Source of the DNA: a virus
Taxonomy: Duplodnaviria; Caudoviricetes
Virus record (IMG/VR): IMGVR_UViG_3300034092_001518
Coordinates: 1-62,135 of that record
Strand: one strand, 5' to 3'
Length of the DNA: 62,135 nucleotides
The stretch's first letter is position 1; each line of letters opens with the position of its first letter. Under the pieces are notes generated by a model. It did no database searches. It had not been told where the DNA came from and saw only the letters and a list, made by a program, of their open reading frames with translations. This document shows, in pieces, positions 19,544 to 38,234 of the stretch. The translations under genes were made by a program, and so were the position numbers.

Positions 19544-19760
19544 ACCTGCTGTTGTCGATTACTACCTCGTAGGAGTGAACCTTGTCGTACATAACCTTGT
19601 CTCCTTTTGACATTCCAGTTACGTTAATTCCTGGCTCGACTATTACACCGTAGTGATAACGCATGTCTTGGTATTCATCACCACTGAGTATTAGTCCGCT
19701 CTTGGATGTTTTTTGTTCTACAACCTTCTCGATTAGTATAAATTTATTTAGGACTCTCAT
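19503..19760 (-). CDS. groS: Co-chaperonin GroES
   Basis: KTSKSGLILS mobile loop, GVIVEPG, GDKVMY and VVQEKDIVCVL; overlaps the groEL stop. Confidence 0.85.
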   Translation of the reverse strand: MRVLNKFILIEKVVEQKTSKSGLILSGDEYQDMRYHYGVIVEPGINVTGMSKGDKVMYDKVHSYEVVIDNSRFTVVQEKDIVCVL

Positions 19761-21309
19761 CTGCTCTAATGTTTGTTATAATTGCATTTGTACTCATTAT
19801 TGTGGTGGCAACAGACACGGCGTTTAAAAGAGCGTTCTTCGTTACCTTGGTCGGGTCAATAATACCCATCTTCATCATGTCTCCAAACTTCTCAGCCTTT
19901 ACATCGTATCCATGACCTTTTTCAAATATGCCCATCTCTATCTCGTGCGGATTCTTTCCAGCGTTAACTAGTATCTGACGAAATGGTGCAACTAGTGCCT
20001 CTGACATTATCTGTGAAGCTACATCATCGTCTGAAAAAGCATATTCAGATGCACATTCTAGAAGCGCTATCCCTCCTCCTGGAAGTATGCCCTCCTCAAG
20101 TGCGGCCATAACAGCGTAAACCGCATCATCAATCCTATCCCTTTTCTCCTTCTGCTCAATGTCGCTCTGTGCGCCAACATATATTACACCAATGCCTCCA
20201 GATATATTAGCAATACGCTCCCTAATAAACTCCCTATCAACATGATCGTCTGTCTGATCCATCATTGACTTAAGCTCTTCTAAATGATTATCTATGTCCT
20301 GCTTAAAATCAGCGTGATGCATAAATACCGTCATGTCTTTTTTTACAATGACCTTTGAAGCTTTTCCAAGGTCGCTTAGTGTTGCAATAGACAAATCATC
20401 ACCAGTATCATCGCTGAAGTACGTGCCTCCAAGAGCAACAGCTAAATCTTTTAAAAGGTCTTTCTGTCTGTAACCAAACGATGGAGGAATAATATTGCAA
20501 GCCTTAATCTTTCCTTGGTAAACGTTAACGTTCAACGTCTGAAGAGCGTTAGGTCCCAAAGTACCAATGATTAATAATGACTTGCCTTGTGAAACAATAG
20601 GAGCCAATATTTTCTCTAGGTTAGATATATTATTTATCTCGTGGTCACAAATCAAAACGTATGGGTTCTCAAGAACACACTCCTGCTTCTTTTGATCATT
20701 AACAAAATATTGAGAAGTGTATCCCCTCTCAATTCTCATGCCGTTAATAATCTCTACACGAGTCTCAGAGTTCATACTGTTCTCTACGGTTACAAGAGAT
20801 ACCTCTGAAAATGCGTCACCAATCATCTTACCAAGATCATTGTCGTTGTTTGCCGATATAGCCGCAACATCGTACAGCCTTTTTCCGTTAACCTTTTTAG
20901 ACATCTTGTCAAGCTTGGAAATAACTCTCTTTGTGATGTCATTTATTCCCCTTATAACCTCAGTAACGTTGTCATTTTCTTTTAAATACTTGTCAGAAGC
21001 GTCAATAATAGCCTCTGCCAACACAATAGACGTTGTTGTTCCGTCACCTGCAATGGTAGCAGTCTTGTCCGCAGCCTGCCTCATCATCATTACAGCTAGA
21101 TTTTCAGTTGGGTCGTACAGATTGATTGACTTTGCTACAGTTACACCGTCCTTTGTAACTGTTATTCCTCCAACATGGTGCTCGGACTCAATTAAAACTG
21201 TCCTTCCTCTCGCTCCAAGTGTACTTTTTACGGCTCCAGCTATCTTTTTGATGCCAGATTTCAATTTTTTTTGGCCTTCATCACCAAAATGAATCTCTTT
21301 TACTATCAT
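19744..21309 (-). CDS. groL: Chaperonin GroEL
   Basis: VTKDGVTVAKSI, AGDGTTTS, EEGILPGGG and GIIDPTKVTKNAL.NA motifs; lacks the GGM tail. Confidence 0.95.
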   Translation of the reverse strand: MIVKEIHFGDEGQKKLKSGIKKIAGAVKSTLGARGRTVLIESEHHVGGITVTKDGVTVAKSINLYDPTENLAVMMMRQAADKTATIAGDGTTTSIVLAEAIIDASDKYLKENDNVTEVIRGINDITKRVISKLDKMSKKVNGKRLYDVAAISANNDNDLGKMIGDAFSEVSLVTVENSMNSETRVEIINGMRIERGYTSQYFVNDQKKQECVLENPYVLICDHEINNISNLEKILAPIVSQGKSLLIIGTLGPNALQTLNVNVYQGKIKACNIIPPSFGYRQKDLLKDLAVALGGTYFSDDTGDDLSIATLSDLGKASKVIVKKDMTVFMHHADFKQDIDNHLEELKSMMDQTDDHVDREFIRERIANISGGIGVIYVGAQSDIEQKEKRDRIDDAVYAVMAALEEGILPGGGIALLECASEYAFSDDDVASQIMSEALVAPFRQILVNAGKNPHEIEMGIFEKGHGYDVKAEKFGDMMKMGIIDPTKVTKNALLNAVSVATTIMSTNAIITNIRADESPK

Positions 21310-21399: not shown

Positions 21400-22821
21400 T
21401 TCAGTTATTTTTTCTGATCGTTTTGTGGCCCTCTGTATTGGCTTTGCACCAACCCTTTCTCTCATCTTGTTGTTTAGAGTAGCAAGCTGCCCGAAAATAG
21501 TGTTTCTGTTTGCTGCATTTTCTCGTTGGTTTCTAAATGTCTCCTGTTTAGAAATATCTTCATAAGAACCCGAGTATCCTTTAAGGTTAGACGCAGTATA
21601 ATATTTATTTTTAGATTGTTTTTGATCGCTAGTAGACAAAACGTTATATCCACTAGGCATTTTTTTATCTCCATCAAGAGCCTGTGTCCAGTAATTGAAT
21701 CCTTCCTCGTTCATTTTTGGTCTTGCTCCCTTTTTGCTTTGTCCAACAATATTACCTTGTTCGTCCTTAAGATTTCCTGTATAATATTTTTCCTGTACTT
21801 GCGTTTTAGGAGTAACCATTTCAGGAGAAGATGTAACTCCAGTTACGTTTTCTCTTCCTGCATATCTTTTTGCTTGTCTGGCTTGTTTAACTCCGTACTT
21901 AGCTTCAGACCACTCTCCTGCTTCCATTGACGCTCTTTTATCTTGGCGAGCCTTTTGAAGAATACCCTTCATCTCCTCCTTGGTTTTGCCTCTAAAAGAC
22001 TCTCCACCGTACTCTCCAGACATATACACCTCGGCTAGTTTTTTCTCTCTGTAGTATCTACCTTCGTCCTTAACCTTAGCTCCATGTATTGGTTGAACTT
22101 CTACCTTTCTTAAGGCTGGAACAGTTTTTCCTTTTTTTGTGATTTTAGTGCCTAATACAGTCTTTGTCGTTTTATAAGATTTTGATGGAGCCTCATAGCT
22201 ATAGTCAGTAACCCCAACATTTTTAGTCTCAACCTCCTCGATAGGCTTCTTAGGCTTAGGAGGAGTAGGAGTAGGAGGTGTTGGGTCTTCTGTCTTGTCT
22301 TCTTTTTTTTGTTCTCTAAGAGAGCTAACACCGAAGCTTTCTCCTGAACCAAATTTTACGCCTATATCAACTTGACGATCAAGCCCCTCTTGAGATGGCT
22401 TATATGATTTCCACCCTGGAACACCCTGAATAGCTTTATTGTATTGTTTGCTACCTTTTCTAAAATCTAATTGAAGCGCAATGTTTTTTTTAGTAGAACC
22501 AATATTTCCTACCTGTTGTATAATTGGCTCTTCATATGTTTTATCATCCAATCTATCTGTAGCTCCTTCTAGGTAATCCCTTACCTCTTTTGGAAGACTT
22601 GAATATCTGCCACCTGTTGGTTTTTCTTTAGTTCCTCCTTCTCCAAAAAATTCAGTATCAAGTTTTTTTTCTTGATACATTTTTCTAATATCTGGCCAAC
22701 TAGAAACAGTGCCCCCGTCACCAGGAAGCTTTTTACCATATACATCTGGGTCTGCTACTCTAGCCCTAGTAATTGGGTCCTCAGTTTTTGGTTTAAACCT
22801 ACCATACTTCATCATTGCCAT
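21397..22821 (-). CDS. Hypothetical basic, low-complexity protein
   Basis: 474 aa, K/G-rich with a PTPPTPTPPKPKKP linker. Confidence 0.65.
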   Translation of the reverse strand: MAMMKYGRFKPKTEDPITRARVADPDVYGKKLPGDGGTVSSWPDIRKMYQEKKLDTEFFGEGGTKEKPTGGRYSSLPKEVRDYLEGATDRLDDKTYEEPIIQQVGNIGSTKKNIALQLDFRKGSKQYNKAIQGVPGWKSYKPSQEGLDRQVDIGVKFGSGESFGVSSLREQKKEDKTEDPTPPTPTPPKPKKPIEEVETKNVGVTDYSYEAPSKSYKTTKTVLGTKITKKGKTVPALRKVEVQPIHGAKVKDEGRYYREKKLAEVYMSGEYGGESFRGKTKEEMKGILQKARQDKRASMEAGEWSEAKYGVKQARQAKRYAGRENVTGVTSSPEMVTPKTQVQEKYYTGNLKDEQGNIVGQSKKGARPKMNEEGFNYWTQALDGDKKMPSGYNVLSTSDQKQSKNKYYTASNLKGYSGSYEDISKQETFRNQRENAANRNTIFGQLATLNNKMRERVGAKPIQRATKRSEKITE

Positions 22822-22949
22822 TTTAAAACAAATTTTATAATTAATAAATTAATCTGAACCTCGTAAAAGTCAAACTCACTATCCTTCGAGTAGTACTCAA
22901 AACCGACATTCAGACCGATCGATAACATGTTGTGAATCTCTATCAACAT
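22812..22949 (-). CDS. Small hypothetical protein
   Basis: MLIEIHNMLSIGLNVGFEYY...; ATG lies 4 nt after the TATCTTTG box at 22954-22961. Confidence 0.5.
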   Translation of the reverse strand: MLIEIHNMLSIGLNVGFEYYSKDSEFDFYEVQINLLIIKFVLKWQ

Positions 22950-23264
22950 GACACAAAGATATATATTTTTTTTGATTTTTAGATGTGTTGAGTTTTTGGG
23001 TAATGGGGTGGATTGACGCTGGCCAGGCTGTCGGGAAAACGGTTTGAAATTCAATGGGGGGGTCTTGATTTCGGATATTTGTCTTGGATTTTTTGGCTTT
23101 TTGGTAGGCTAATGCAACTCAGTTGCGATAGGCTGTTCGTTGCGCCCAGTATGTATATACATAGTTGTTTATGTACGTTGACTTATGTATATATATAGTA
23201 GCAAACCTACATGTAGTATAACTTGTATTATGTTAAATAGAATTAACATTCGTTAACATTTGCT

Positions 23265-23301
23265 GTCGGTCGGTCGGCATGTCGGTAGGTCGGTCGGTCG
23301 G
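23265..23301. repeat. Tandem GTCG repeats
   Basis: GTCGGTCGGTCGGCATGTCGGTAGGTCGGTCGGTCGG in the divergent non-coding region. Confidence 0.85.
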
Positions 23302-23471
23302 ACGTATTATATATATTCTTAACGCAACATCGTTGCACCTAGATGTATGGCGTTAGACCAGTCGCCATTGCAAAATAAGTTACATTTTTCACGCAAATAA
23401 TGTGTAATACTCTAAAACCCTTATCCACATTACGTTTCATGCGTTTTTAATGCGTCTCAAACCCGTCCGAA

Positions 23472-23513
23472 CTACGTAGATGCGTCTACGTGTTTCTACG
23501 TAAAAACTACGTA
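23472..23513. repeat. Four spaced CTACGT repeats
   Basis: ctacgtaga...ctacgtg...ctacgtaa...ctacgtaa, spaced 11-14 nt apart. Confidence 0.8.
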
Positions 23514-23560
23514 ATTTGATGTTTTTCTCGTAACAAAACAAAGCATACTTGCGTTAACAT

Positions 23561-23992
23561 TGGTGTACGGCAAACGAGCCGACAGCGATTGACAAGCGAC
23601 ACACATGGGGGACTCAATTACGACTCTTAGTTCTAGCAGTCACTGCGACAGAGACTAGATGAAAGTAATAAGAGCTTAGGAGAGGCCTACTGAGAAAGAA
23701 CATGACTGCGATAAGCGAGCTACATAGACTGAAATGCTTAGTTTATCAGTCAATCAAATAATTGACATCTTGGTAAGACAATAAACATTAACGGGGTAGG
23801 TCAGACCTAGTGTAGTACGGGGTAAGTATAAAGACTCCTCAAAGCTACGGCAATCATTACACTACTCAGGTGGGTGATGTCAAAACCATGCATAGCATAG
23901 GGATAAAGAAGAGAGATGGCAGTTTCACGTGGCCATCAAAAACTTGGTGCTGTTAGAATAACTAATTAATAGGAGTAATACCTACAGCACCG
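23561..23992 (+). ncRNA. Candidate large structured RNA or structured early leader
   Basis: No ORF in the track; about ten complementary segment pairs, including long-range ones (see findings). The strand is assumed from the downstream genes. Confidence 0.4.
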
Positions 23993-24014
23993 CTAACCAA
24001 TAAAACAAGTAATC

Positions 24015-24125
24015 ATGTCAAGCAAAATCATCAAAATCGAGGGAATCTTCGAGGTATGGGGATTCTTTAAGAATGGGGTGCTAGTTCGAACAACAAGAGT
24101 AAGAATCCCATTTTCACATCGTTAA
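24015..24125 (+). CDS. First early small protein (36 aa)
   Basis: Translated by hand: MSSKIIKIEGIFEVWGFFKNGVLVRTTRVRIPFSHR. Confidence 0.45.
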   Translation: MSSKIIKIEGIFEVWGFFKNGVLVRTTRVRIPFSHR

Positions 24126-24147
24126 TTAACCTTTAAAACAAATAACC

Positions 24148-24327
24148 ATGAAAGCAGTAATTTTTTCAATCGGTCTAGCCATGACCATAATCGGAGTAGT
24201 TGTACCTGTGACATCTAGCGTAACGGGATATATGATGGATACACACGAGCATGCGTTAACCATATTCGGCATCTTAGTAGTAGGTCTATCCTTAGGTGCT
24301 GTATTAATTAAAAAGTCTAACATTTAA
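24148..24327 (+). CDS. Small two-transmembrane protein (59 aa)
   Basis: Translated by hand: MKAVIFSIGLAMTIIGVVVP...ALTIFGILVVGLSLGAVLIKKSNI; preceded by AAATAACC. Confidence 0.55.
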   Translation: MKAVIFSIGLAMTIIGVVVPVTSSVTGYMMDTHEHALTIFGILVVGLSLGAVLIKKSNI

Positions 24328-24339
24328 AAAATAGAAACC

Positions 24340-24510
24340 ATGAATACTTACTATATAGCTGATGAATATCAAGGTCAGCGCACAGGAACGTATCAAGAAA
24401 TCAAGCTATCCAAGAAGGAAATCACGCTGGATAGATTCGGCAACAAGACGTACAACGGGAAATACCTGTACGAGAGTTTATACAGCGTACTCAGAGCAAT
24501 TCAATCGTAA
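24340..24510 (+). CDS. Early small protein (56 aa)
   Basis: Translated by hand: MNTYYIADEYQGQRTG...; preceded by the TAGAAACCATG start motif. Confidence 0.55.
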   Translation: MNTYYIADEYQGQRTGTYQEIKLSKKEITLDRFGNKTYNGKYLYESLYSVLRAIQS

Positions 24511-24527
24511 ATTAAAACCTAGAAACC

Positions 24528-24737
24528 ATGAGATACCATTTGTTCATCGATACTGGAGGAGACAACAACATTGTAACCATTAAAATAGCATCATCAGACG
24601 ACTTTAAAGTAATGATATCAATGTCCAATGCGATATTGAGCAACAACGAAATGATTCAAGAAACTATCATCAAGGACGTATACACATCCAACATGGTAAT
24701 ATACGGAAAGGACAGAATTTACTCAAAACAATATTAA
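24528..24737 (+). CDS. Early hypothetical protein
   Basis: 69 aa; TAGAAACCATG start motif. Confidence 0.6.
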   Translation: MRYHLFIDTGGDNNIVTIKIASSDDFKVMISMSNAILSNNEMIQETIIKDVYTSNMVIYGKDRIYSKQY

Positions 24738-24749
24738 AAACTAGAAATC

Positions 24750-24953
24750 ATGAATACACAAGAATTTATCGAAAACGAAATCAAATATGTTGTGCAGGAT
24801 ATCGAAAATATTTCAAAGATAGTTAGTGTGCAAAGCAATGAATTTAATGGTGACCATCAAAGCGAGATGACATTGCTATGGAACATGAGTGTTCTAAAGG
24901 AAAAGATAGACGAGTTAAAAGAATTAATTAATTACAAATCAAATAACAAATAG
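24750..24953 (+). CDS. Early hypothetical protein
   Basis: 67 aa; CTAGAAATCATG start motif. Confidence 0.6.
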   Translation: MNTQEFIENEIKYVVQDIENISKIVSVQSNEFNGDHQSEMTLLWNMSVLKEKIDELKELINYKSNNK

Positions 24954-24958
24954 AAATC

Positions 24959-25129
24959 ATGGAAGAATTAAAAGGAATCCTTAAGAGACAGCTAGAGATA
25001 GCTAAAGTTAAAAGGGAATTAGCTGAGAAACAAGGAAACGTAGATAGATACAACTACTACGACCACAAGGCATATTTACTTGCAAAGGTAATTGATGAGA
25101 TATCTTACAAAAACACAACTAAAAACTAG
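24959..25129 (+). CDS. Early small protein (56 aa)
   Basis: Translated by hand: MEELKGILKRQLEIAK...; TAGAAATCATG start motif. Confidence 0.55.
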   Translation: MEELKGILKRQLEIAKVKRELAEKQGNVDRYNYYDHKAYLLAKVIDEISYKNTTKN

Positions 25130-25134
25130 AAATC

Positions 25135-25389
25135 ATGAACTACAAAAAATTAATGTCATACGAGCCAACAAGCTACGGCAAAATGATGAACGACAAAGGT
25201 CAAGAAATTGAATTCTACGAGCATCCAATCTATGGTGATGAGGTGCAAGTAATATGCGTATGTCACGAGCTAGAACTAGCTGAATACAGCACGTTCTTCG
25301 AGACTGATGACATGGAAGCGGAGCATGGTGAATATCAACCATGGTTCGATGAGAACGGAAAGCTATACATGGGACAATTTGAAGCATAA
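25135..25389 (+). CDS. Early acidic hypothetical protein
   Basis: 84 aa; start motif present. Confidence 0.65.
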   Translation: MNYKKLMSYEPTSYGKMMNDKGQEIEFYEHPIYGDEVQVICVCHELELAEYSTFFETDDMEAEHGEYQPWFDENGKLYMGQFEA

Positions 25390-25408
25390 CAACTAAAAAC
25401 TAGAAATC

Positions 25409-25582
25409 ATGAAAGTGAAAGCAAAAAATAAAATTGAGGCATTAGAGCAATACGGAATAGAGCGTATATATTTCAAAGGGAGTAAACCATATGGATGCAT
25501 ATGGAGCATATACATATATCACGTATATGCAATACGTGTATCATATGGATTATATGAAATAGTTATGACTAGAGTAAATTAA
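25409..25582 (+). CDS. Early small protein (57 aa)
   Basis: Translated by hand: MKVKAKNKIEALEQYGIE...; start motif present. Confidence 0.5.
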   Translation: MKVKAKNKIEALEQYGIERIYFKGSKPYGCIWSIYIYHVYAIRVSYGLYEIVMTRVN

Positions 25583-25605
25583 TTAACCAATAAAAAATAG
25601 AAATC

Positions 25606-25842
25606 ATGAAAACAGGAAAAATTTTAGACAACGTAGGATTCCGTAAGATGGACGGAACAATAAGAATACTAACCATCAGAGAGCAATTAATCCGCAACAA
25701 GCAGTTCGTTGGAATCAACGACATCAAGCATCCGATGTTGGGAGTAATCTCTGTTGATCGATCGAGAATTGACGAGCTACTGAAGTACGAGGAAGGTCAC
25801 CTAATCAGATTCAAAAAATCAATGTTCGATGGTAACCTATGA
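25606..25842 (+). CDS. Early hypothetical protein
   Basis: 78 aa; start motif present. Confidence 0.6.
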   Translation: MKTGKILDNVGFRKMDGTIRILTIREQLIRNKQFVGINDIKHPMLGVISVDRSRIDELLKYEEGHLIRFKKSMFDGNL

Positions 25843-25978
25843 CATAATCATCGCCACCATTCGTGGTGGAATGAAAACAATTCGCAAGACATTCAACAAC
25901 GAAAACCATTATGACAATTGGTACAAGTTCATGAATCGTCAAGGTATAAAAATAGTAGATACTTTTAAAATTGATTAA
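25829..25978 (+). CDS. Small hypothetical protein (49 aa)
   Basis: Translated by hand: MVTYDIIIATIRGGMKTIRKTFNNENHYDNWY... Confidence 0.45.
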   Translation: MVTYDIIIATIRGGMKTIRKTFNNENHYDNWYKFMNRQGIKIVDTFKID

Positions 25979-25979
25979 G

Positions 25980-26429
25980 ATGAATACAGGAGGATATGTT
26001 TATCTGAGAATAAACGAGAACTACACAGCCACAATACGTGACCTAAAATCATTTGCTAACTATCTACGTGATGTAGGAGACACAGACGATGTGTTCGGAG
26101 AAGTCACAGCAATATCCAATGTAAGCAAACTTTTTTTACATAGAATGAACGACATTATAAACGAGCACAAGAAAAGACTGAACAAGAGATTCATTGGGAA
26201 AGAGACTCAAGTCAAAAGGAATCAAGGAATCAGAGATGCCGTAGTAGTTGGAGCGAATGGTGAGCACCTGTTAATTGAGTACGAGATGCCTAACGGAACG
26301 ACAGCGCTCAATATCATAGACGAGATGTCCAGCGCTGATGAATACAAATCCATCACGTATAAGAACGCAATGTCAAAATTTGAGATAGATTTTAGTTTAT
26401 TAATTAATAACCCACAAAAACACAAGTAA
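25980..26429 (+). CDS. Hypothetical protein
   Basis: ORF 25971..26429; probable ATG at 25980. Confidence 0.6.
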   Translation: MNTGGYVYLRINENYTATIRDLKSFANYLRDVGDTDDVFGEVTAISNVSKLFLHRMNDIINEHKKRLNKRFIGKETQVKRNQGIRDAVVVGANGEHLLIEYEMPNGTTALNIIDEMSSADEYKSITYKNAMSKFEIDFSLLINNPQKHK

Positions 26430-26803
26430 TGAAACGTAACTTTAAAATCAGATTCCACCTTGGGCAAGGTGAGAACTACATGAAGTGGAGAGTGGAGGAC
26501 GTGACCACTAATAACGTTTGGTTCTTCGAGCCATCTAACTTCCAAGCACTAATCGTGAACGGCAAACTTCAAAATTATCCTTCTACCGCCAAAAAAATCA
26601 ACGATGGTGCTAACAAAACTGTTTGTGCATGGATTATGGCTGAGGACGTTATGCTGTATCCTACCGATAACCTTTGGATGAAGGGACAGGTAGCGTACAA
26701 TCCACGTTTGATGCCACATTGGATAGACAACAACGGAAACAACGTTGACAAGCAAGAATTCGCAGAGATGCACATTGTAGAACGTAAAATATTTACACCA
26801 TGA
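26429..26803 (+). CDS. Hypothetical protein
   Basis: 124 aa; translationally coupled to the previous gene. Confidence 0.65.
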   Translation: MKRNFKIRFHLGQGENYMKWRVEDVTTNNVWFFEPSNFQALIVNGKLQNYPSTAKKINDGANKTVCAWIMAEDVMLYPTDNLWMKGQVAYNPRLMPHWIDNNGNNVDKQEFAEMHIVERKIFTP

Positions 26804-26985
26804 AAACAAATCAAGCAACATTAAGAAAAATAAAAACAATCCTTGAAGAATTACGCCAAGAAATTCGGCAAGGTACAATAAGCTATGGAGAGATAGTTGA
26901 ACTACATAGTTTAAAAAAATACATTGAAGAGGGTGATGTTGAACTGCTTGAATGGGCAGGAGTAAATGAATTTGAAAACGATTAA
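26800..26985 (+). CDS. Hypothetical protein
   Basis: 61 aa; ATGA-coupled. Confidence 0.55.
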   Translation: MKTNQATLRKIKTILEELRQEIRQGTISYGEIVELHSLKKYIEEGDVELLEWAGVNEFEND

Positions 26986-26997
26986 AAACTAATAACC

Positions 26998-27222
26998 ATG
27001 AAAACATTATTTGCAGTACACCATGTGTTCGATTGCCTAGACTACAACGAACACTACTACTTCACATCGTTTGCTGAAGCATTCGATAGGCTAACCGACA
27101 TAAAGAATTCCATACAGGAACACCTTTTCATTGAGGAGGTATACACCGATCATCAAATGGATTTTTATGTTCATCTTGACGATGGACTACAGCGAGTATA
27201 CATAGAAGAAATTAACCTTTAA
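26998..27222 (+). CDS. Hypothetical protein
   Basis: 74 aa; AAAACTAATAACCATG start motif. Confidence 0.6.
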   Translation: MKTLFAVHHVFDCLDYNEHYYFTSFAEAFDRLTDIKNSIQEHLFIEEVYTDHQMDFYVHLDDGLQRVYIEEINL

Positions 27223-27235
27223 ATCATAATTAACA

Positions 27236-27451
27236 ATGGACATGATTGATAAACTAATGGCATACGAGGAGGGTATGCTAGATGGAGCAGGTATGGTGTA
27301 CCTGTTCGCTGAACTAATCAAGATAAAGCAAGCGTGGAGTCTACAAGGTCACTACGGACGAATGGCACAACGATTCATAGATGCAGGGATAATTATGCCC
27401 AATGGTGACATAGATGAGATGCGAGCAATAGAGTACGGAATAGAAATGTAA
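27236..27451 (+). CDS. Conserved small phage protein (AWSLQGHYGR motif)
   Basis: 71 aa. Confidence 0.65.
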   Translation: MDMIDKLMAYEEGMLDGAGMVYLFAELIKIKQAWSLQGHYGRMAQRFIDAGIIMPNGDIDEMRAIEYGIEM

Positions 27452-27480
27452 AAATGTTTAACTAATAAAAACTAATAACC

Positions 27481-27717
27481 ATGGAAAATTTATCAGATTC
27501 AAGACTAATGGCAATAGCTAACGCAAAGTTAGTTTTAAAGCAAGCAGGATACTACGTAGACAATCTATGGAGCATCCATGACGTAAAGGATGACAGCCTA
27601 ACTGACGAACAAAAGATGAAAGCGTTAGACATGGCACTAACAAATGAATACACTACAGAGCAAATATTTTATGCTATAAGTGTAAGCGTAGAAATAATAA
27701 CCGAAAAAATCAAGTAA
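27481..27717 (+). CDS. Hypothetical protein
   Basis: 78 aa; AAAACTAATAACCATG start motif. Confidence 0.6.
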   Translation: MENLSDSRLMAIANAKLVLKQAGYYVDNLWSIHDVKDDSLTDEQKMKALDMALTNEYTTEQIFYAISVSVEIITEKIK

Positions 27718-27719
27718 CC

Positions 27720-27929
27720 ATGAGCAAGCTCAGAGAACAGCTAGGACTGATGCATGACATCAGAGTCAAGGCAAACATAAACATCGTGACGTGTGGTCAC
27801 TGCGATGCGATACTACTACACCACATGGATGAAGAAACAATCATTTGTTACTCATGCATGAGAGACATGGACATCAGTGATTGTCCCGACTACTTTTACG
27901 AAGGAATGCCAGAATTAAACAATGAATAA
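27720..27929 (+). CDS. Small zinc-ribbon protein
   Basis: CGHC...CYSC cysteine pairs. Confidence 0.6.
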   Translation: MSKLREQLGLMHDIRVKANINIVTCGHCDAILLHHMDEETIICYSCMRDMDISDCPDYFYEGMPELNNE

Positions 27930-27931
27930 CC

Positions 27932-28099
27932 ATGGAAGAATTAATCAAAATTATTCTCAAATACGAGAAAGAACTAAGAGATGAAAAGGACGAGCTAACT
28001 GAAGCATTCGGTCACACAGACCCATCAGCAGAATGGTCAACCAATCGTTGGCTCGTTATGGAAGAACTATTAACCAAATTAAATTTAAAACCGCTATGA
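27932..28099 (+). CDS. Small hypothetical protein (55 aa)
   Basis: Translated by hand: MEELIKIILKYEKELRDEK... Confidence 0.5.
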   Translation: MEELIKIILKYEKELRDEKDELTEAFGHTDPSAEWSTNRWLVMEELLTKLNLKPL

Positions 28100-28320
28100 A
28101 AGATCAAATTTTATCAAAGGGCAACAGAATGTTTTCTGTAACCTTTATCAAGAAAGATGGTTCTATTAGAAGAATGGTCGCTCGACTAGGAGTTCGCAAG
28201 GGAGTAAAGGGTGTAGGCATGTCGTTCAATCCATCTGACAGGGGACTAATGGTCGTATTCGACATGCACAAGCGAGAGTTCCGAATGATTAACTTGGAGA
28301 CTATTGTAGAACTTAAATGA
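28096..28320 (+). CDS. SH3/WYL-like beta-barrel protein (DUF2693-like)
   Basis: FSVTFIKKDGSIRRM...VVFDMHKREFRMINL; probable ATG at 28096. Confidence 0.55.
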   Translation: MKDQILSKGNRMFSVTFIKKDGSIRRMVARLGVRKGVKGVGMSFNPSDRGLMVVFDMHKREFRMINLETIVELK

Positions 28321-28586
28321 TGATTGTGATGAACCTAATAATTTTTAGCCAAAAAACTAAGCTGGACGGCTTTGCGTTTTACAACATAAAGACTGGGGAC
28401 TTTGAACCCTCATCAAGCTTATCCATCATTGATGGAACAACTAAGGAGTACAACGGAACGGATTCAATAAGGCAGAACGTAAAGTCATACGTATTGGAAA
28501 ACATAGAGCTTCTTTACGACAAAGACAACTACTTGTCAAGCAGAATACATAAAGGTAACTTAAGACTATTTATTTCAAAAACATGA
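28317..28586 (+). CDS. Hypothetical protein
   Basis: 89 aa; coupled. Confidence 0.55.
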   Translation: MMIVMNLIIFSQKTKLDGFAFYNIKTGDFEPSSSLSIIDGTTKEYNGTDSIRQNVKSYVLENIELLYDKDNYLSSRIHKGNLRLFISKT

Positions 28587-28744
28587 AGAGAGTATCAAGA
28601 ATCGCCATGATATCCATACTGGGCGTATGGGTGCTAGGCAGAAGCAACTTAGAAATATCGGACGAACTACATACCTATCTGACAATCAGTCTGTTAGGCA
28701 TGAACATTATGGTTTTAGTGTTAACACATGACGAAAAATGTTGA
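28583..28744 (+). CDS. Small membrane protein (53 aa)
   Basis: Translated by hand: MKRVSRIAMISILGVWVLG...; two hydrophobic stretches. Confidence 0.45.
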   Translation: MKRVSRIAMISILGVWVLGRSNLEISDELHTYLTISLLGMNIMVLVLTHDEKC

Positions 28745-28998
28745 TTTTTTTTCAACTTAACACAAGCCAATCTTCTGTAAATCAATGGATTAACTAAAAA
28801 AATGTCGAAATGTCAATTTTTCAACCAAAAAATCGTAAAATTAAAATATCGCTATATAATACTATATATATATATATTTTTTTTTTATTTACTAATTGGT
28901 ATATAAAAATTAACATTTTAACATTATCCTAGTAAAATCAATGGTTTCAGAAAAAAAAATCGACATAAAATCAACATTTATTAACACAAATCAACATT
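28735..28998. other. Putative replication origin: inverted iteron-like octamers around an AT-rich core
   Basis: AATGTYRA x3 on the left and TYRACATT-like x5-6 on the right, with a (TA)n/poly-T centre. Confidence 0.5.
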
Positions 28999-29271
28999 AT
29001 GAAAGCAAAAGTAAATCCATTCTATCGGTCGGTAGTCCTATCGGTAGACGATGTAGAGCTATCTGAGATATTCTTCGACTACACGGACGAGTGGGAGTCA
29101 AGGGAGATAAACGGCAAGATGTACGACATCCATTTCAACTACCAGCCAAAGGATTCGTACAAGAACGAGAAAGAGTGGCTGATGTCGTTGGTATCGGTTT
29201 ACTTAGTTGGAGACTGGACAGAGGAGCACTACTCCAGGAACTTAATAACCGAAGTAAAGCTAGAGCTATGA
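28999..29271 (+). CDS. Hypothetical protein
   Basis: 90-aa ORF. Confidence 0.6.
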   Translation: MKAKVNPFYRSVVLSVDDVELSEIFFDYTDEWESREINGKMYDIHFNYQPKDSYKNEKEWLMSLVSVYLVGDWTEEHYSRNLITEVKLEL

Positions 29272-29438
29272 AACCAATAGATAAGGCAATGTCTTTAATG
29301 GATAGGCTAAAAGACAAGGAGAGCGCAATAATTGTATGCAATGATTTGATTGGATTTTGGGAACGAATAGACACGACATACAGCAGGTCAAAGATATATT
29401 TTTATGAGAGGGTCAAACAAGAAATAATAAAGCTATGA
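29268..29438 (+). CDS. Small hypothetical protein
   Basis: MKPIDKAMSL...; the ATGA-coupled part of ORF 29091..29438. Confidence 0.5.
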   Translation: MKPIDKAMSLMDRLKDKESAIIVCNDLIGFWERIDTTYSRSKIYFYERVKQEIIKL

Positions 29439-29598
29439 CAAAGTACCTAATTAAATTTGTACAGAGGGGTGAATCTTCTGAGGTAAATATAACTTGCAAG
29501 GACGAGACTATGGCTGTCATATTTTTTGAGATGGCATTTCCAGATGCAATTATATTGTCGATTGAAAAGAGCTTAGTTCAAATCATAACAACAAAGCC

Positions 29599-29787
29599 AT
29601 GTTTAAACTAATAAAATACACAATAGTATGGATAAGTCAGAATTTAAGTATACCATTTTGGGTGGTAGGTCACGTACACTTATCGTTGAACGTGTACGAG
29701 GACATCCACGAGATAATTATGTCAATGGGGATGAATATAATAGTATTAATTGGATTTATAATAAGCTATAGAGATGATAATAAATAA
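29599..29787 (+). CDS. Small membrane protein
   Basis: 62 aa, hydrophobic. Confidence 0.55.
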   Translation: MFKLIKYTIVWISQNLSIPFWVVGHVHLSLNVYEDIHEIIMSMGMNIIVLIGFIISYRDDNK

Positions 29788-29940
29788 GGTAATTTTTTGG
29801 GCTATCATGTACTTGATAAGCCTATTCATATCGATCAGGGCAACAACCCAAATTGGTGTATTTATATTGCCCATGATTATATTTAATGCGATATCTGCGC
29901 TAACGTTATTATGTTACTTAATTTGTTTAGATTTTGAAAA

Positions 29941-30351
29941 ATGAAAAAAATAATTCTTTCGGCATTTTGTGCTATGGTAGCACACATGTCATTTGCCCAG
30001 TCGAACTACTTCTTAGTTTCAAAAGATTATGAGAAGGTGCTAATTGAAAGCAAAAACATAAGTGCAATGTATATCAGGTCTTTTGACAACAAGTCGGACG
30101 CTATAAAAGAACACATAAGAGTATTTGGATATAATTTTAAAGAAGCGTTGCCAACAGTAACCAAGAAATGTAACACACCAATATTTGCCAACTTTTTAAG
30201 CAAGACCGACTCAAGCGTTTGTATTACAACTTTTGTAACAATAAACGAGGAAGGTGGTTATGATAGTGTGTTTTTGGAAGGAATCAACGAGGACTACTAT
30301 TTATTTACATGTGACGGAACAGATTACATAAACAGCAAAATTATTAAATAA
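29941..30351 (+). CDS. Exported protein with a signal peptide
   Basis: MKKIILSAFCAMVAHMSFA-Q is a typical Bacteroidota signal peptide followed by Gln. Confidence 0.6.
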   Translation: MKKIILSAFCAMVAHMSFAQSNYFLVSKDYEKVLIESKNISAMYIRSFDNKSDAIKEHIRVFGYNFKEALPTVTKKCNTPIFANFLSKTDSSVCITTFVTINEEGGYDSVFLEGINEDYYLFTCDGTDYINSKIIK

Positions 30352-30352
30352 C

Positions 30353-30751
30353 ATGGAACACATCTGGGAATATATTTCGTCAAAGCATAACGACCAAATT
30401 TACAGGACTTTAAATAGTTCATGGTACATTGACAAGGGCGTAAAGATAGAGAGGTTTGACAAGGATGGCAAGATCGAGATAATGAACACAATGGTTCAGT
30501 CTGACTTTCACGAGCCAATAAGCAGCAACCAAGAGTTTTATTTTGATAAGTACGGATGGGATGCAGGATGCACTAGTGTTCAGATAGACTCGACTGAGAC
30601 AAAAATAAACAGGCTTTACGCCTTGCTTGAGTACTACGGATTAAACAGCAAGTCTGAGGAGGCTACATGGGCAAAGGAGCAAATTGATAACTTGACGAAA
30701 AAAAGACGAGACCTTGTTTTGAAATTAAAAAAAATAATGCAAACTTTGTAA
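30353..30751 (+). CDS. Hypothetical protein
   Basis: 132-aa ORF. Confidence 0.6.
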   Translation: MEHIWEYISSKHNDQIYRTLNSSWYIDKGVKIERFDKDGKIEIMNTMVQSDFHEPISSNQEFYFDKYGWDAGCTSVQIDSTETKINRLYALLEYYGLNSKSEEATWAKEQIDNLTKKRRDLVLKLKKIMQTL

Positions 30752-30768
30752 TCAATTAAATTAAATAT

Positions 30769-31248
30769 ATGGCGCACTGGAGAAATCTAATGAAAGACAA
30801 CAAGTACATGGGAGCATGGGACTTGGAGGTCAACGGCAAGTACGAGCCGAGGGAGGTAACAATCGAGAAGATATACCAAGACACCTTTGTTGGGGAGATG
30901 GGCAAGGAGGACAAGGTATTTGTCAAGCTAAAGGAGTTTGACAAGTCTATGGTTTGCAATCGCTCAAACTTCAAGAGGTTGGAGACATTCTTTAATTCAT
31001 TCGACCCGAACGACTACATCGGCAAGACAATTGTCATCACGACAGAGAAGGTCAAGAGTCCTCAAGGCTTGGTCGATGCGCTGAGGTTCAGCACTCGTCC
31101 ATTGCCCAAGAAGGAGCTACCTATGCTGAATGACGATCAGTTGGGCAAGGCAATAGATGCGGTAAAGACTGGCAGGACTACAATCGAAAAGATTAAGAAG
31201 CAGTACACCATCACTGAGGACCAACTAAAAATGTTTGGTAATGATTAA
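30769..31248 (+). CDS. Putative recombination / ssDNA-annealing protein
   Basis: 159 aa (HWR...YMGAWDL); sits before the exonuclease and SSB. Function is inferred from position. Confidence 0.45.
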   Translation: MAHWRNLMKDNKYMGAWDLEVNGKYEPREVTIEKIYQDTFVGEMGKEDKVFVKLKEFDKSMVCNRSNFKRLETFFNSFDPNDYIGKTIVITTEKVKSPQGLVDALRFSTRPLPKKELPMLNDDQLGKAIDAVKTGRTTIEKIKKQYTITEDQLKMFGND

Positions 31249-32026
31249 GGTAAGGTCGTCCAGCTGTGCTCTCTTGTTTTCTGGCAAGAGAGGAGGACTA
31301 ACAACAAAACAGAAAGAAAAGCTTGAAGGATTGAAGATGAAGATTAAGCTCACAGAGAAGCAAGCAGAGGAGAGAGACGAGCTTGAGAAGAAGGGTGAAA
31401 TATCTGACGAGCTGAGTGAAATGGCAAAGACCTACATCGAGGACATGGTTGACGAGGTCGTGTACGGATTCAGGAAGAAGTTTACCACAAGGGAGATGAC
31501 CAAGGGAATCATGGTGGAGGACGACTCAATCGAGATGTACAACCGATTGTTTTTCACGAGTCACTTCAAGCAGGCTGAGTTTGACAAGTTTTACGAGCTA
31601 ACCCATGGAGTATCGATTGGCCACCCTGACATTGTTGACGAGTCTAGGCTCATGGTGATTGACATCAAGAGTCCATGGAGCAAGCACACGATGCCGAAGA
31701 CAATAAAGAAGGCAGACAAGAAGTCAAAAGAGGCTGGTTACGATTGGCAGGTCAAGCACTACTTGTACATGCTACGCAAGATGACCAACATGGACTGGAG
31801 AAACGGAGAGATTGCCTACGTTCTTAGCAACACGCCAGAGGAGTTGATTCCAGAGAACGAGGCAGACAGTCTGCACTATATGGATGACTTGGCCGATGAG
31901 CTGAGGGTGACAATTGTGAAGGTGGATTTGACTGACGATGACATCGATTGGATGGAGTCTCAGATAAAAAAGGCAGAGACATATGCAAAGGAGTATTTTA
32001 ACTATCTAAATAATAAAAACAAATGA
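31235..32026 (+). CDS. YqaJ/lambda-exonuclease-like PD-(D/E)XK nuclease
   Basis: KG...E, GHPDIV, IDIKSPW and YDWQVKHYL motifs. Confidence 0.75.
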   Translation: MVMIKVRSSSCALLFSGKRGGLTTKQKEKLEGLKMKIKLTEKQAEERDELEKKGEISDELSEMAKTYIEDMVDEVVYGFRKKFTTREMTKGIMVEDDSIEMYNRLFFTSHFKQAEFDKFYELTHGVSIGHPDIVDESRLMVIDIKSPWSKHTMPKTIKKADKKSKEAGYDWQVKHYLYMLRKMTNMDWRNGEIAYVLSNTPEELIPENEADSLHYMDDLADELRVTIVKVDLTDDDIDWMESQIKKAETYAKEYFNYLNNKNK

Positions 32027-32343
32027 GTGATTTTAAAATGAAAGGGGTTTTAAAGGTTATAAACCCAGCGGTACAGGTAAGCGAGAAGTTTATCAAGAGA
32101 GAGTTCGTACTTAACGAGCCACACGATCAGTATCCACAGGACATCTTGTTCCAGTTAACGCAAAAGAACGTTGACGTGTTGGACAAGTTTGGAGAGGGTC
32201 AAGAGGTTGAGGTATCGTTTAGGATTCGAGGACGAGAGTACAACGGAAAGTACTTTAACAACATTGAGGCATGGAGAGTCGAGGCCATTGGCGAAGCTCC
32301 CAAGCCAGTTGAGGTTAAGGAAGAAGAGCCGTTACCGTTTTAA
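32023..32343 (+). CDS. DUF3127-like single-stranded DNA-binding protein
   Basis: FIKREFV..YPQDI.FQL..VEVSF.IRGREYNGKYFNNIEAWR and an acidic tail ending LPF. Confidence 0.75.
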   Translation: MSDFKMKGVLKVINPAVQVSEKFIKREFVLNEPHDQYPQDILFQLTQKNVDVLDKFGEGQEVEVSFRIRGREYNGKYFNNIEAWRVEAIGEAPKPVEVKEEEPLPF

Positions 32344-32357
32344 TCTACTGCTAATCA

Positions 32358-32383
32358 AGGTGGGTAGTCAATCTACCCACTTT
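32358..32383 (+). terminator. Intrinsic terminator-like hairpin
   Basis: GGTGGGTAG-TCAAT-CTACCCACT followed by T residues. Confidence 0.6.
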
Positions 32384-32396
32384 AAATTTAATCAAA

Positions 32397-32651
32397 ATGA
32401 AAAAATTATTGTTACTTTTACCATTGCTTTCGTTATCATGCAAGACAGCGTCAAAGTGTGACGCATATACATTGAAACTTAGCCCAGACTGCGACTCGAT
32501 TATGGTCACAAGGTACAACAAGATGTACATGCCAAAGATACCAGTAGAGGGAGCAAGCCTTCTATCTTTTCACAACATTGATAGGGGAAGCTACAGGCTT
32601 AATATGTACAAGAGAGGCAACATTGAAACAATTAAATTTAAAATAAAATGA
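32397..32651 (+). CDS. Small lipoprotein
   Basis: MKKLLLLLPLLSLSC lipobox. Confidence 0.6.
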   Translation: MKKLLLLLPLLSLSCKTASKCDAYTLKLSPDCDSIMVTRYNKMYMPKIPVEGASLLSFHNIDRGSYRLNMYKRGNIETIKFKIK

Positions 32652-32902
32652 GCGATATAACAAAGTGCCCAGGGACAGATTGTCCCATGAGACAGAGTTG
32701 TAAAAGATTTACTGCAAAAGCTAATGAGCATAGGCAATCATACTTTCTTGACCCACCATACCACATTAATGATGTAGGTTTCTCCTGTGACATGTACTGG
32801 GGAGAATTTGCTCAATCAGCTTGGGAGTCACTACAAGAGTCTATTGGAATCACCATACCTAAACTTAAAAAGAACTATGACTTCAATGATCACAAATTGT
32901 GA
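32648..32902 (+). CDS. Cys-motif small protein (DITKC..C..C.R type)
   Basis: 84 aa; ATGA-coupled. Confidence 0.6.
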   Translation: MSDITKCPGTDCPMRQSCKRFTAKANEHRQSYFLDPPYHINDVGFSCDMYWGEFAQSAWESLQESIGITIPKLKKNYDFNDHKL

Positions 32903-33067
32903 CCTATAAGCTTAAAAAACTTTACAAATTTTAAACCTATAAGCTATGAAACAAACAGCAGAACAAATAATAGTGCCTTAAGACGCACTATTTAATTTAA
33001 CTACATAAGAAAAACCAATAAATGTATAATATAGTGCTATTTACTGCACGAATAAATAAATAATAAG

Positions 33068-33310
33068 ATGAAACAGACAGCAGTAGAGTGGTTGGCACTT
33101 TACATTAAAGGAATTACATCTTTGAATTGTGATGAAGTTATTGAACAAGCCAAAGAAATGGAGAAGGAGCAGATGATTAATTTTGCTGAATTTGTAGCAA
33201 CATATCCAGACAAAAATATAAATATAAATGGGGAGATGTTACATGCTAAATCTAAGTATGATGGTGCTGAAAGAACTATTGACTTATTAGAAACCTTTAA
33301 ATCAGAATAA
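33068..33310 (+). CDS. MKQTAVEWL-type hypothetical protein
   Basis: MKQTAVEWL...IEQAKEMEKEQ...ETFKSE, a recurring small-protein type in Bacteroidota phages. Confidence 0.65.
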   Translation: MKQTAVEWLALYIKGITSLNCDEVIEQAKEMEKEQMINFAEFVATYPDKNININGEMLHAKSKYDGAERTIDLLETFKSE

Positions 33311-33311
33311 G

Positions 33312-33533
33312 ATGAAAGCCAAACTAACATTTAATCTACCAGAAGATAAGTACGAATGGGAGAATGCTATGCGTGCTGATGCTATGTACTGTGTACTGTG
33401 GGATCTATCTCAGGAGCTTAGAACACTATGGAAGTATGAGGAGCTAAGTGAGGAGGAGTGGAATATGGTTGAGAGAATCAGAAATAAGTTCTATGAGATA
33501 CTTGGTGATAATCAAATTAATTTAGACAAGTGA
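33312..33533 (+). CDS. MKAKLTFNLPED-type hypothetical protein
   Basis: 73 aa. Confidence 0.65.
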   Translation: MKAKLTFNLPEDKYEWENAMRADAMYCVLWDLSQELRTLWKYEELSEEEWNMVERIRNKFYEILGDNQINLDK

Positions 33534-33615
33534 GTGGATTTATAATTGGACTTGTTTACGGAATTTTAATCGGAATATTTATCGGCATCAGTCTGTCTGT
33601 TTACCTACTTGAAAT

Positions 33616-33689
<74 letters not shown>

Positions 33690-33790
33690 CTTTGTTTGGA
33701 GTTAGAGTTCTTCGGTTAGCCTCCATACGGGTAAAAACTCTACGCACACTGGTATGGCAGGTGTGTGTTTTTAAATCTAAAATTAATACT

Positions 33791-34021
33791 ATGAAATGGG
33801 AATCAACATCAACTGCCGACATAGTTGTCGATAGTGTAGTGGAGAGCGTTATCTCTAAAATTAGGTCAAGGTCTAGTGTTGGAATAAAGAAGTACAACAC
33901 AACAATGGACAGAAAGGATTTGTCTACCGAGCAGTGGATAGTACACTTGCAGGAAGAATTAATGGATGCCACGATTTATTTGGAAAAACTAAAATCAATT
34001 TTAAATGATAACCTACTTTAA
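33791..34021 (+). CDS. Conserved phage protein, MazG-like helical motif
   Basis: GIKKYNTTMDR.DL...W..HLQEELMDA.IYLEKL; probable ATG at 33791. Confidence 0.55.
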   Translation: MKWESTSTADIVVDSVVESVISKIRSRSSVGIKKYNTTMDRKDLSTEQWIVHLQEELMDATIYLEKLKSILNDNLL

Positions 34022-36353: not shown

Positions 36354-36355
36354 TT

Positions 36356-36643
36356 ATGAATATTTGCGAGGCAACAATAAAGGGTAAGATTGATTTTTAC
36401 AAATTACTTCTTAAGATTACAGCAGATAACGCTAAAAAGTGTGAAGAAATAAATCGTAAAATTGAAGACCTAAAGTCTTGCTACGATTACCTTACCAAGG
36501 GCACAAAGATGGATTTTCTTCCAGTAGAGAGCATCGATGCGTTGGTAAGGAAGAAAGGCCTCATGCACAAGAAGCCTTACTGTATTGATCTTGTGGATGA
36601 AATTGATTCTTGCGTTCAAAACATTCGAAATGAATTTGCGTGA
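36356..36643 (+). CDS. Hypothetical protein
   Basis: 95-aa ORF. Confidence 0.55.
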   Translation: MNICEATIKGKIDFYKLLLKITADNAKKCEEINRKIEDLKSCYDYLTKGTKMDFLPVESIDALVRKKGLMHKKPYCIDLVDEIDSCVQNIRNEFA

Positions 36644-37865: not shown

Positions 37866-37931
37866 AATGTTTTTTTTATTGCCAATGATGGCATACAGTA
37901 AAATTGATGGAGAAAAAATGTTGATTGTTGG

Positions 37932-38234
37932 ATGGTTCCACAAGTCAATTGTAATAAGATTTATAATGTCATAATGAAAATTCTAAACGACCCAATGATA
38001 AGGTTACTGGTGGATACCTTTGACCTTGAGACACCAGAGCAGAACATACTTGAGATATGCGATTACGAGTACAAGGATGGTGTAATTGTAATTAAAAAGA
38101 TTAAGGTGTTGGATTCTGATTTAAATTTTATTAGATTTGCAGATCTTGAGAAGGTAACTAAATACCTCAGCAAGTATTACTGCAACTTCAATGACAGAGC
38201 AACAGATACAGACGAAGATAATCAAGAAGCTTGA
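37932..38234 (+). CDS. Hypothetical protein
   Basis: 100-aa ORF; the true start may be an internal ATG. Confidence 0.5.
   Translation: MVPQVNCNKIYNVIMKILNDPMIRLLVDTFDLETPEQNILEICDYEYKDGVIVIKKIKVLDSDLNFIRFADLEKVTKYLSKYYCNFNDRATDTDEDNQEA

Follow-up and report, generated by a model that had tools for sequence, protein, structure and literature searches.

We identified a real and new family of structured RNA in the genome of a virus of the class Caudoviricetes, the IMG/VR record IMGVR_UViG_3300034092_001518, which is complete and whose 62,135 nucleotides (nt) constitute the window analyzed here. An initial annotation of positions 23561-23992 had proposed a large phage non-coding RNA or a cis-acting leader, and this inference stood: the 3' 230 nt form a covarying structured RNA on the plus strand. 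The core and 3' junction of this RNA (23771-23991) are solid, whereas its 5' module is weakly supported. The element occurs once in the window, in a 1.2-kb divergent gap separating the two gene arms, and its place is fixed, after the divergent promoter region and ahead of the first early open reading frame (ORF): in all 14 of the 14 loci with at least 2.5 kb on either side, ORFs upstream are mostly on the minus strand and ORFs downstream mostly on the plus strand.

A search with the neighboring 474-aa protein led to five loci (designated, like all relatives, by L numbers), one with a 97% identical protein and four at 31-33% identity. The RNA is far better conserved than this neighbor: 23762-23940 is 91.6% identical to L003 and L005, 23762-24156 is 83.8% identical to L006, and the core is 84-92% identical among phages whose adjacent 474-aa protein is merely 31-33% identical. 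Further loci were gathered by exact-motif scans of viral and metagenome collections; the second search pattern relaxed the first conserved block and recovered an A>T variant. A covariance model, R1, built from 37 distinct cores (window 23771-23937), matched 61 of the 74 viral or metagenome loci fetched exactly once each (84-191 bits), these comprising about 41 distinct sequences, and did not match the remaining 13, which were chance motif hits. Four sequences of subtype B, excluded from the model, still score 84-96 bits. The family comes from freshwater and marine assemblies. Two exact gapped patterns run against 185,579 prokaryote species genomes gave 0 matches each, which says only that those exact patterns are absent there.

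The initial annotation could assign the RNA to no known family, and Rfam agrees. In Rfam 15 at the gathering threshold, a tRNA at 33616-33689 is the only hit that passes in the whole window, and at E up to 10 over 22700-24300 we obtained four chance-level hits, of which a single one falls within the region, on the minus strand, with 11.5 bits where 50 are required. The models of GOLLD, ROOL, pRNA and the ribozyme families have no match in the region at E up to 10. We searched the literature for such an element and found no description of it. A 2023 survey of IMG/VR intergenic regions reports 8,495 unnamed candidates of 29-151 nt with no assigned function, including tRNA-like and upstream-of-gene candidates (PMC10690425); pieces of our RNA may be among them.

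Relatives show the covariation that the initial annotation had expected of a genuine RNA. In the 37-sequence alignment, 95.1% of cells are paired and 27 of the 50 core pairs have changed on both sides, a result reached by none of 500 shuffles; slid controls, in which the partner was moved by 1-3 columns, gave 28-42% paired cells and at most six double-changed pairs. With a refined structure, which adds the hairpin P2 and two candidate pseudoknots, a set of 29 sequences has 96.8% of cells paired and 26 of 49 pairs changed on both sides (0/500 shuffles); RNAalifold, likewise run on 29 sequences, predicted 38 pairs, of which 22 have compensatory changes. That 27 of 50 pairs have changed in a compensatory way shows that pairing is under selection and does not drift neutrally.

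The core opens with a conserved single strand (UGGUAAGACAAUAAACAUUA, 23771-23790, plus strand like all features of the RNA), whose invariance is partly forced by the search pattern. Three hairpins follow, butted end to end without linkers. P2 (ACGGGG/CCUAGU, 23791-23796 with 23806-23811, loop UAGGUCAGA) has 80.5% of its cells paired; one of its pairs is seen as GU, AU and CG, and the window copy carries one G.A mismatch. P3 (GUAGU/GCUAC, 23812-23816 with 23844-23848) is paired in 100% of cells with four of its five pairs changing on both sides, and encloses P3b (GGG/CCU, 23820-23822 with 23837-23839, and AGU/ACU, 23825-23827 with 23834-23836), where two of six pairs do so and the apical loop is conserved. 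P4 is a long hairpin (GGCA-UCAUU-CACU/GGUG-GGUGAU-GUC, 23849-23863 with 23869-23881, loop ACUCA) with 97.5% of cells paired and 7 of 13 pairs double-changed, and is cut down to 5 base pairs (bp) in subtype B. P5 (CCAUGC/GCAU-GG, 23886-23891 with 23895-23901; 99% of cells paired, five of six pairs double-changed) is lengthened by insertions in other members, and in L009 has a GCAA tetraloop in place of AUA. A purine-rich conserved joiner (GAUAAAGAAGAGA, 23902-23914) leads to P6 (GAUGGCA/U-GCCAUC, 23915-23921 with 23930-23937, loop GUUUCACG), which is paired in 100% of cells and has six of seven pairs double-changed in the 37-sequence set and seven of seven in the 29-sequence set.

The core probably also holds two small pseudoknots, both candidates read from the alignment. 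In the first, GAC(A) at 23777-23780 would pair with (G)GUC of the P2 loop (23799-23802); three of its pairs are invariant, and in 8 of 37 sequences the fourth is U-A instead of A.G. In the second, AAG at 23909-23911 would pair with UUU of the P6 loop (23923-23925); among 37 sequences one pair is AU in 34, CG in two and something else in one, and the other two are invariant. An all-against-all column-pair search was dominated by clade structure and served only as a lead for this AAG/UUU pseudoknot. A long-range helix P1 (TTGAC/GTCAA) was considered and rejected: its 3' half is used by P4, its 5' half is lacking in L012 and L063, and L036 preserves P4 base pairing through a change from C-G to U-A.

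The initial annotation had described 23561-23992 as densely paired. All 11 segment pairs that it listed are present in the sequence at the coordinates it gave, but their density is within chance: the minimum free energy of the region is -108.3 kcal/mol (z -1.85), three of 100 shuffles are as good, and the minus strand gives z -1.51. Folded as a single sequence, 23769-23992 recovers P3-P6 and the last stem, yet at z -1.33. The comparison with shuffled sequence proposed in that annotation thus comes close to a negative outcome, which covariation overrides; on its own it would have led to a wrong rejection. Four of the 11 pairings are supported by relatives, among them GATGGC/GCCATC, which is the covarying P6, and GGTGCTG/CAGCACC, which is the covarying closing stem of the 3' junction. 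Three were replaced by helices with better support, the covarying P4, P4 and P5 taking up their respective 3' arms: in place of TTGACATC/GATGTCAA, GATGTC pairs with GGCAATC in P4; in place of TAGTGTAGT/ATTACACTA, which includes one G-U, GTAGT pairs with GCTAC (P3) and CACT with GGTG (P4); and the CCATG of the long-range CATGG/CCATG is the 5' strand of the covarying P5. The conserved fold mostly differs from the one first drawn.

Downstream of P6 lies a three-way junction (23946-23991). Its 7-bp closing stem, GGUGCUG/CAGCACC, encloses a first hairpin (UUAG-AAUAA-CUAA, 4 bp and a 5-nt loop), a 4-nt linker UUAA, and a second hairpin (UAGG-AGUAAUA-CCUA, 4 bp and a 7-nt loop) that directly abuts the 3' strand. 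In 16 distinct sequences, 13 of the 15 junction pairs change on both sides; these sequences were picked by script with pairing required, so that their 100% pairing is by construction while the variety of pairs is not, and the set left out subtype B and members with a first hairpin shorter by one base. In 14 of the 16 sequences, the first loop has G at its position 4 and the second loop has C at its position 3; the window and L033 have A and U there instead. In tRNA, G19-C56 is a loop-loop Watson-Crick pair, and the switch between G-C and A-U, probably a single evolutionary event, is what a tRNA-like loop-loop pair would give. The geometry also fits a mimic of the acceptor and T arms, since the 7-bp stem runs directly into a T-type hairpin that has a loop of 7 nt, and it covaries. 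By this analogy, we read the junction as a functional equivalent of the top half of tRNA, compact and with the outline of a tRNA lacking the anticodon arm.

Other members carry more canonical parts. In 18 of 42 distinct members, TTCGATT sits in a perfect 5-bp stem downstream of P6, in seven stem versions, and in 13 of them this T-arm is inserted as an additional module that separates P6 from the junction. In subtype B (L025, L040, L041, L043, L053), the T-arm sits within a covarying 6-bp stem that resembles an acceptor (GGTGGG/CCCACC, GAACGG/CCGTTC, GGTCGG/CCGACC), and the resulting minihelix, joined to a GG-containing strand, occupies the exact place of the junction and is followed by the same ACUAACCAAU tail. 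The likeness to tRNA-like structures therefore includes an acceptor-like stem stacked on a 7-nt-loop hairpin, the absence of an anticodon arm and a purine after the stem, to which subtype B adds a true TTCGATT T-arm and a D-loop-like strand containing GG. Unlike tRNA-like structures, the window junction has no T-loop consensus and no encoded CCA, and lies inside a leader rather than at the 3' end of an RNA. A tmRNA was considered and rejected: ARAGORN finds none in the region or in 12 relative loci, the acceptor-like stems have U3-A70 or A3-U70 and not G3-U70, and there is no tag frame.

The structure is that of a plus-strand RNA, as is indicated by conserved G-U pairs, the GCAA loop variant of L009 and the TTCGATT T-loops. 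At five positions G-U pairs are kept in 31-37 of 37 sequences, at two of them in 37 of 37, where the opposite strand would have A.C, and UUCG, GNRA and T-loop motifs are features of RNA. A weak hint of expression comes from short RNA-labelled library contigs found in four runs from four studies. Three of them cover 23737-23922 (without differences), 23776-23933 and 23762-23888 (the GCAA variant), and the fourth joins 23453-23589 to 23762-23823, a form without the optional module M1 described below; such libraries may hold DNA, and the contigs show no ends. The four runs leave the 3' junction, the first ORF and most of the upstream region uncovered, an absence from contigs that proves nothing.

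Concerning the 5' side, a candidate sigma-A -7 box (TAACATTG, 23555-23562) matches seven of the eight positions of TAnnTTTG, a Bacteroidota-type consensus located at -12 to -5 (PMC9723704). The predicted start lies near 23567, six bases from that of the initial annotation. In relatives the box, perfect as TATATTTG or TAGCTTTG, is followed after 6-7 nt by GCAAACGAGC. A second promoter-like site may lie at 23510-23516 (TAATTTG), after CTACGTA repeats. Immediately downstream of the predicted start is a 5' hairpin (CGGC-AAACGA-GCCG, 23568-23581; -6.3 kcal/mol, z -3.0), probably the 5' end of the transcript. Its loop AAACGA is conserved and its stem varies among relatives (GGC/GCC, AGC/GCT, GGC/GCU), and the CGGC/GCCG pairing of the initial annotation holds, with GGC/GCC exchanged for AGC/GCT.

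Between this hairpin and the core lie modules that vary from member to member. In the window this is M1 (171 nt, 23591-23761), flanked by the direct repeat ATTGACA and exactly missing, between two ATTGACA repeats, from the 97% relative L002/L011. M1 is present at 95% identity solely in L008/L037, and an 18-mer scan found just L008. Alone it folds at the level of shuffled sequence (z -0.11). GAAAGTAATAAG and one covarying helix (23624-23629 with 23669-23674) recur in the module M4 of other members (L051, L064, L017 and others) and are the sole comparative support within 23591-23761: the CTCTTA/TAAGAG of the initial annotation is exchanged there for TGCTTA/TAAGTA, TACTTA/TAAGTA and CCCTTT/AAAGGG. 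The two M1 copies differ at too few sites for pairing tests, and for TCTAG/CTAGA, TAGG/CCTA and GCAGTCA/TGACTGC, the last of which had been drawn as a pseudoknot, two near-identical copies give no comparative support; GACTGA/TCAGTC is weakened by an A>C that breaks pairing in the sole other copy. Small ORFs of 17 and 19 aa in M1 were considered, the second of which is not kept in L008. TTGACA was also rejected as a -35 box, having no -10 partner, with five promoter-like matches against a shuffled mean of 5.2. A different module, M2, of about 145 nt and with a UUCG-loop hairpin, is found in L008 (8376-8520, minus strand) with equivalents in L010, L051 and L064-L079, and is not in the window.

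On the 3' side, the junction is followed by an unpaired A-rich tail (GCUAACCAAUAAAACAAGUAAUC, 23992-24014), in which ACUAACCAAU is conserved and which forms the translation start region of the first early ORF. This ORF (MSSKIIKIEGIFEVWGFF..., 36 aa, 24015-24125) lies outside the RNA and has no Pfam match; a script placed its family first among the ORFs of 19 of 42 distinct members, two more were found by eye, and the others differ. As read by eye from the sequences, the first ATG lies 16-25 nt from the junction in most members. In L011, which also lacks M1, the first early ORF starts with ACG instead of ATG (around position 590, equivalent to 24015). The initial annotation was right that the region is free of ORFs: there is none of at least 29 aa on the plus strand of 23561-24014, and just one 28-aa GTG frame. 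A protein-coding reading was likewise rejected, as relatives differ by indels and paired substitutions with no conserved frame. No terminator follows the junction. A riboswitch was rejected on this ground and on the A-rich start region being unpaired in the conserved fold.

The reading that we favor, tentatively, is that of a modular early leader whose tRNA-like end would be a handle for processing or stabilizing a host-directed core RNA. The stretch from about 23567 to 23992 would be a long structured 5' leader of the rightward early transcript, working as plus-strand RNA and assembled from the 5' hairpin, the optional 171-nt module, a core of about 170 nt with five hairpins, and the three-way junction. 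The tRNA-like end would offer a handle to host tRNA-end-processing enzymes of the RNase P/RNase Z type, or act as a stabilizer, and would either separate the core from the downstream mRNA or protect the core against it. The core would be produced first and abundantly after infection and would then target a conserved piece of host machinery, for instance RNA polymerase, the ribosome or a tRNA-related factor. We favor a handle because the top half of tRNA is the part recognized by RNase P, RNase Z and the CCA-adding enzyme; tRNA-type punctuation and tRNA-like ends are exemplified by viral tRNA-like structures (TLS), the tRNA-like domain of tmRNA, the bacterial Y RNA YrlA and mascRNA. A conserved host machine, or else the RNA's own chemistry, is the suggested partner because the RNA is far more conserved than the neighboring phage proteins.

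Several observations weigh against this reading. The folding energies of 23561-23992 and of the core plus 3' element are not significant. No cultured phage is known to carry the RNA: a blastn search of 22800-24100 against 50,697 GenBank phage records gave no match, and R1 finds nothing in MW202828.1 or in the Flavobacterium phage MT497078.1, which are closest to the window in GenBank by primase and GroEL. Because the first gapped pattern required the blocks TAAGACAATAAAC and GTAAGTATAA, their invariance is partly built in. Concerning the tRNA-like end, the loop-loop change between G-C and A-U rests on one lineage (2 of 16 sequences), and the window junction has no canonical T-loop, the second loop AGUAAUA reading A-GNRA-UA and not TTCRANY. 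ARAGORN reports no tRNA or tmRNA at 23561-23992 or in 12 relative loci, Rfam has no tRNA match at E up to 1 in L025, L053, L041, L017 and L026, and neither program recognizes a tRNA-like element in subtype B or T-arm members. One RNA-library contig begins at 23453, upstream of the predicted start. Finally, the junction is never far from the first start codon, and a cis role would explain this at least as well as processing would.

Such a purely cis-acting leader, in which the nascent fold would control the operon by antitermination or anti-pausing, by protection of the 5' end, or by setting up translation in a host without Shine-Dalgarno pairing, is the main rival, though we find it rather doubtful. 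The RNA is invariably placed after the promoter region and before the first early ORF. The short distance from junction to start codon without an intervening terminator would suit this role, as would the insertion of optional modules upstream of the core, after the 5' hairpin, something that a co-transcriptional element could accommodate. The first ORF varies, one family accounting for about half of the members, so the element follows position and not gene. At about 447 nt, the leader is also far from the median 5' untranslated region of 24 nt given for Flavobacterium psychrophilum (PMC9723704). A need for antitermination is not obvious, however: a consensus scan of 23500-40500, in itself uninformative, found only two weak terminator-like sites on the plus strand. 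No pairing was found between the RNA and the start region, and we know of no part played by tRNA-like modules in antitermination.

A precedent for such a cis role is the put RNA, which is about 70 nt long with two stem-loops and is confined to lambdoid coliphages. The put RNA of HK022 (mentioned in PMC9974457) is a cis-acting antiterminator of early phage operons. Like it, our RNA would be a folded nascent RNA just downstream of an early promoter, with a place independent of the downstream gene; unlike it, it has a different fold, no homology and no evident terminators to overcome, and its core is far larger and more conserved than a put-type role needs.

Beyond the favored leader with a processing handle, a bolder proposal, which we consider unlikely, would make the family a new class of large, ornate and modular phage RNA, from 250 to more than 600 nt, in no sense a passive leader. 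Its tRNA-mimicking modules would enter the host tRNA or translation machinery within the first minutes, as a decoy or inhibitor of a tRNA-directed function or defense, as a catalytic RNA or as an RNA-only assembly. To our knowledge, few classes of large structured phage RNA exist and none has an understood function.

Some of these roles have precedents of their own. A virion or packaging-motor RNA like the pRNA of phi29, or an RNA-only assembly like GOLLD and ROOL, would agree with early transcription at the head of the early region, the three-way junction and the conserved loops. It is nevertheless improbable, as Rfam shows no match to pRNA, GOLLD or ROOL and no self-complementary loop pair is shown. 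pRNA sequences also diverge quickly along with their phage partners, unlike our RNA, which is far more conserved than phage proteins. In kind, our RNA nevertheless comes nearest to GOLLD and ROOL, and is also near tRNA-like structures and the put RNA, while fitting none of them by model or defining features. In parts of a recent preprint, GOLLD is reported to be conserved in its 3' region, variable in its 5' region and linked to tRNAs, and tRNAs are found beside or inside both GOLLD and ROOL (bioRxiv 10.1101/2024.12.08.627333). As far as those parts go, our RNA resembles both in being phage-borne and mostly environmental, with a complex covarying fold and pseudoknots, which are candidates here; its variable 5' modules before a conserved core echo GOLLD, and its built-in tRNA-like modules echo the tRNAs of GOLLD and ROOL. 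It differs from both by the absence of any sequence or model match, by its position as the 5' leader of an early operon directly before an ORF, by its restriction to a Flavobacterium-phage-like clade and by its smaller size, about 425 nt in the window, with the longest members, L051 and L064, exceeding about 600 nt as estimated from the printed sequences.

A self-cleaving or otherwise catalytic RNA that would process the early transcript itself is more improbable still. Its highly conserved loop and joiner nucleotides, the candidate pseudoknots and a conservation far above that of the neighboring proteins would suit a catalyst; against this, known ribozyme families give no match at E up to 10, no cleavage site can be named, and most self-cleaving RNA classes are smaller than about 170 nt. 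A weak hammerhead-like match in one relative hints at ribozyme use by these phages: L026 has at 322-397 (minus strand, which is the strand of its leader), about 2 kb downstream, a RAGATH-1 hit of 28 bits against a threshold of 56.3 (E 0.53) that holds the CUGAnGA/GAAA/GUC core. This sequence match suggests a self-cleaving ribozyme inside the early operon of that relative; the window has no such hit.

A DNA-level element (replication origin, packaging site or promoter array) or a recently exchanged neutral segment is scarcely credible, for although the region is divergent, has a local minimum of cumulative GC skew at about 23000, adjoins GTCGGT and CTACGTA repeats and has TTGACA motifs flanking its modules, the conserved G-U pairs are strand-specific, the UUCG, GNRA and T-loop motifs belong to RNA, 27 of 50 pairs are compensatory and TTGACA has no -10 partner.

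The interest of the RNA lies in its unusually clean comparative support, its fixed place at the very start of early transcription, and its modular build with tRNA-like parts, all in phages of Bacteroidota-type hosts, whose transcription and translation signals depart from those of model systems. If the tRNA-like end is processed, it would be a phage example of tRNA-type punctuation freeing a host-directed RNA; if the RNA instead works in cis, it would represent a control element of a new kind for early operons. On either reading it offers a defined RNA of 170-230 nt suited to probing, cryo-electron microscopy and enzyme assays.

In the window, the minus-strand arm left of 22821 encodes the 474-aa protein, a phage GroEL, the portal and structural proteins, and the plus-strand arm (24015-40224) encodes many small ORFs, an SSB, exonucleases, a primase-helicase, a helicase and one tRNA-Arg. 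The GroEL chaperonin (19744-21309, minus strand; phrog_5725, E 4.5e-133) adjoins the RNA, at 53-88% aa identity, wherever the flank of a relative is long enough; compared with the GroEL of cultured Flavobacterium phages, its identity is 39-41%. This linkage implies that the RNA marks one phage clade, and from the available sequences the RNA appears conserved in a single clade of uncultured GroEL-bearing phages. By primase and GroEL, the nearest GenBank relatives are an uncultured podovirus (48-52% aa) and Flavobacterium phages (36-41% aa). Because window genes, as read from the sequence, have no Shine-Dalgarno sequences and the nearest relatives include Flavobacterium phages, we propose that the host is probably a member of the Flavobacteriia.

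At the end of the plus-strand arm, a 3503-aa ORF (40221-50732, minus strand) has only DUF7178 and DUF3293 as recognized domains and no sequence match to a solved structure. An N4-like virion RNA polymerase using hairpin promoters was considered for it and dropped, with no polymerase match in PHROGs, Pfam and PDB sequence searches. Within the divergent region, about 300 nt upstream of the RNA, a DNA block at 23212-23266 (TTGTATTATGTTAAATAGAATTAACATTCG...) retains 90-96% identity in distant relatives and may represent a promoter, operator or terminus element that they have in common. It is followed by runs of the GTCGGT repeat at 23264-23303 and by several CTACGTA(G) repeats at 23470-23515; the latter are found again in relatives immediately upstream of the leader and resemble operator or iteron sites.

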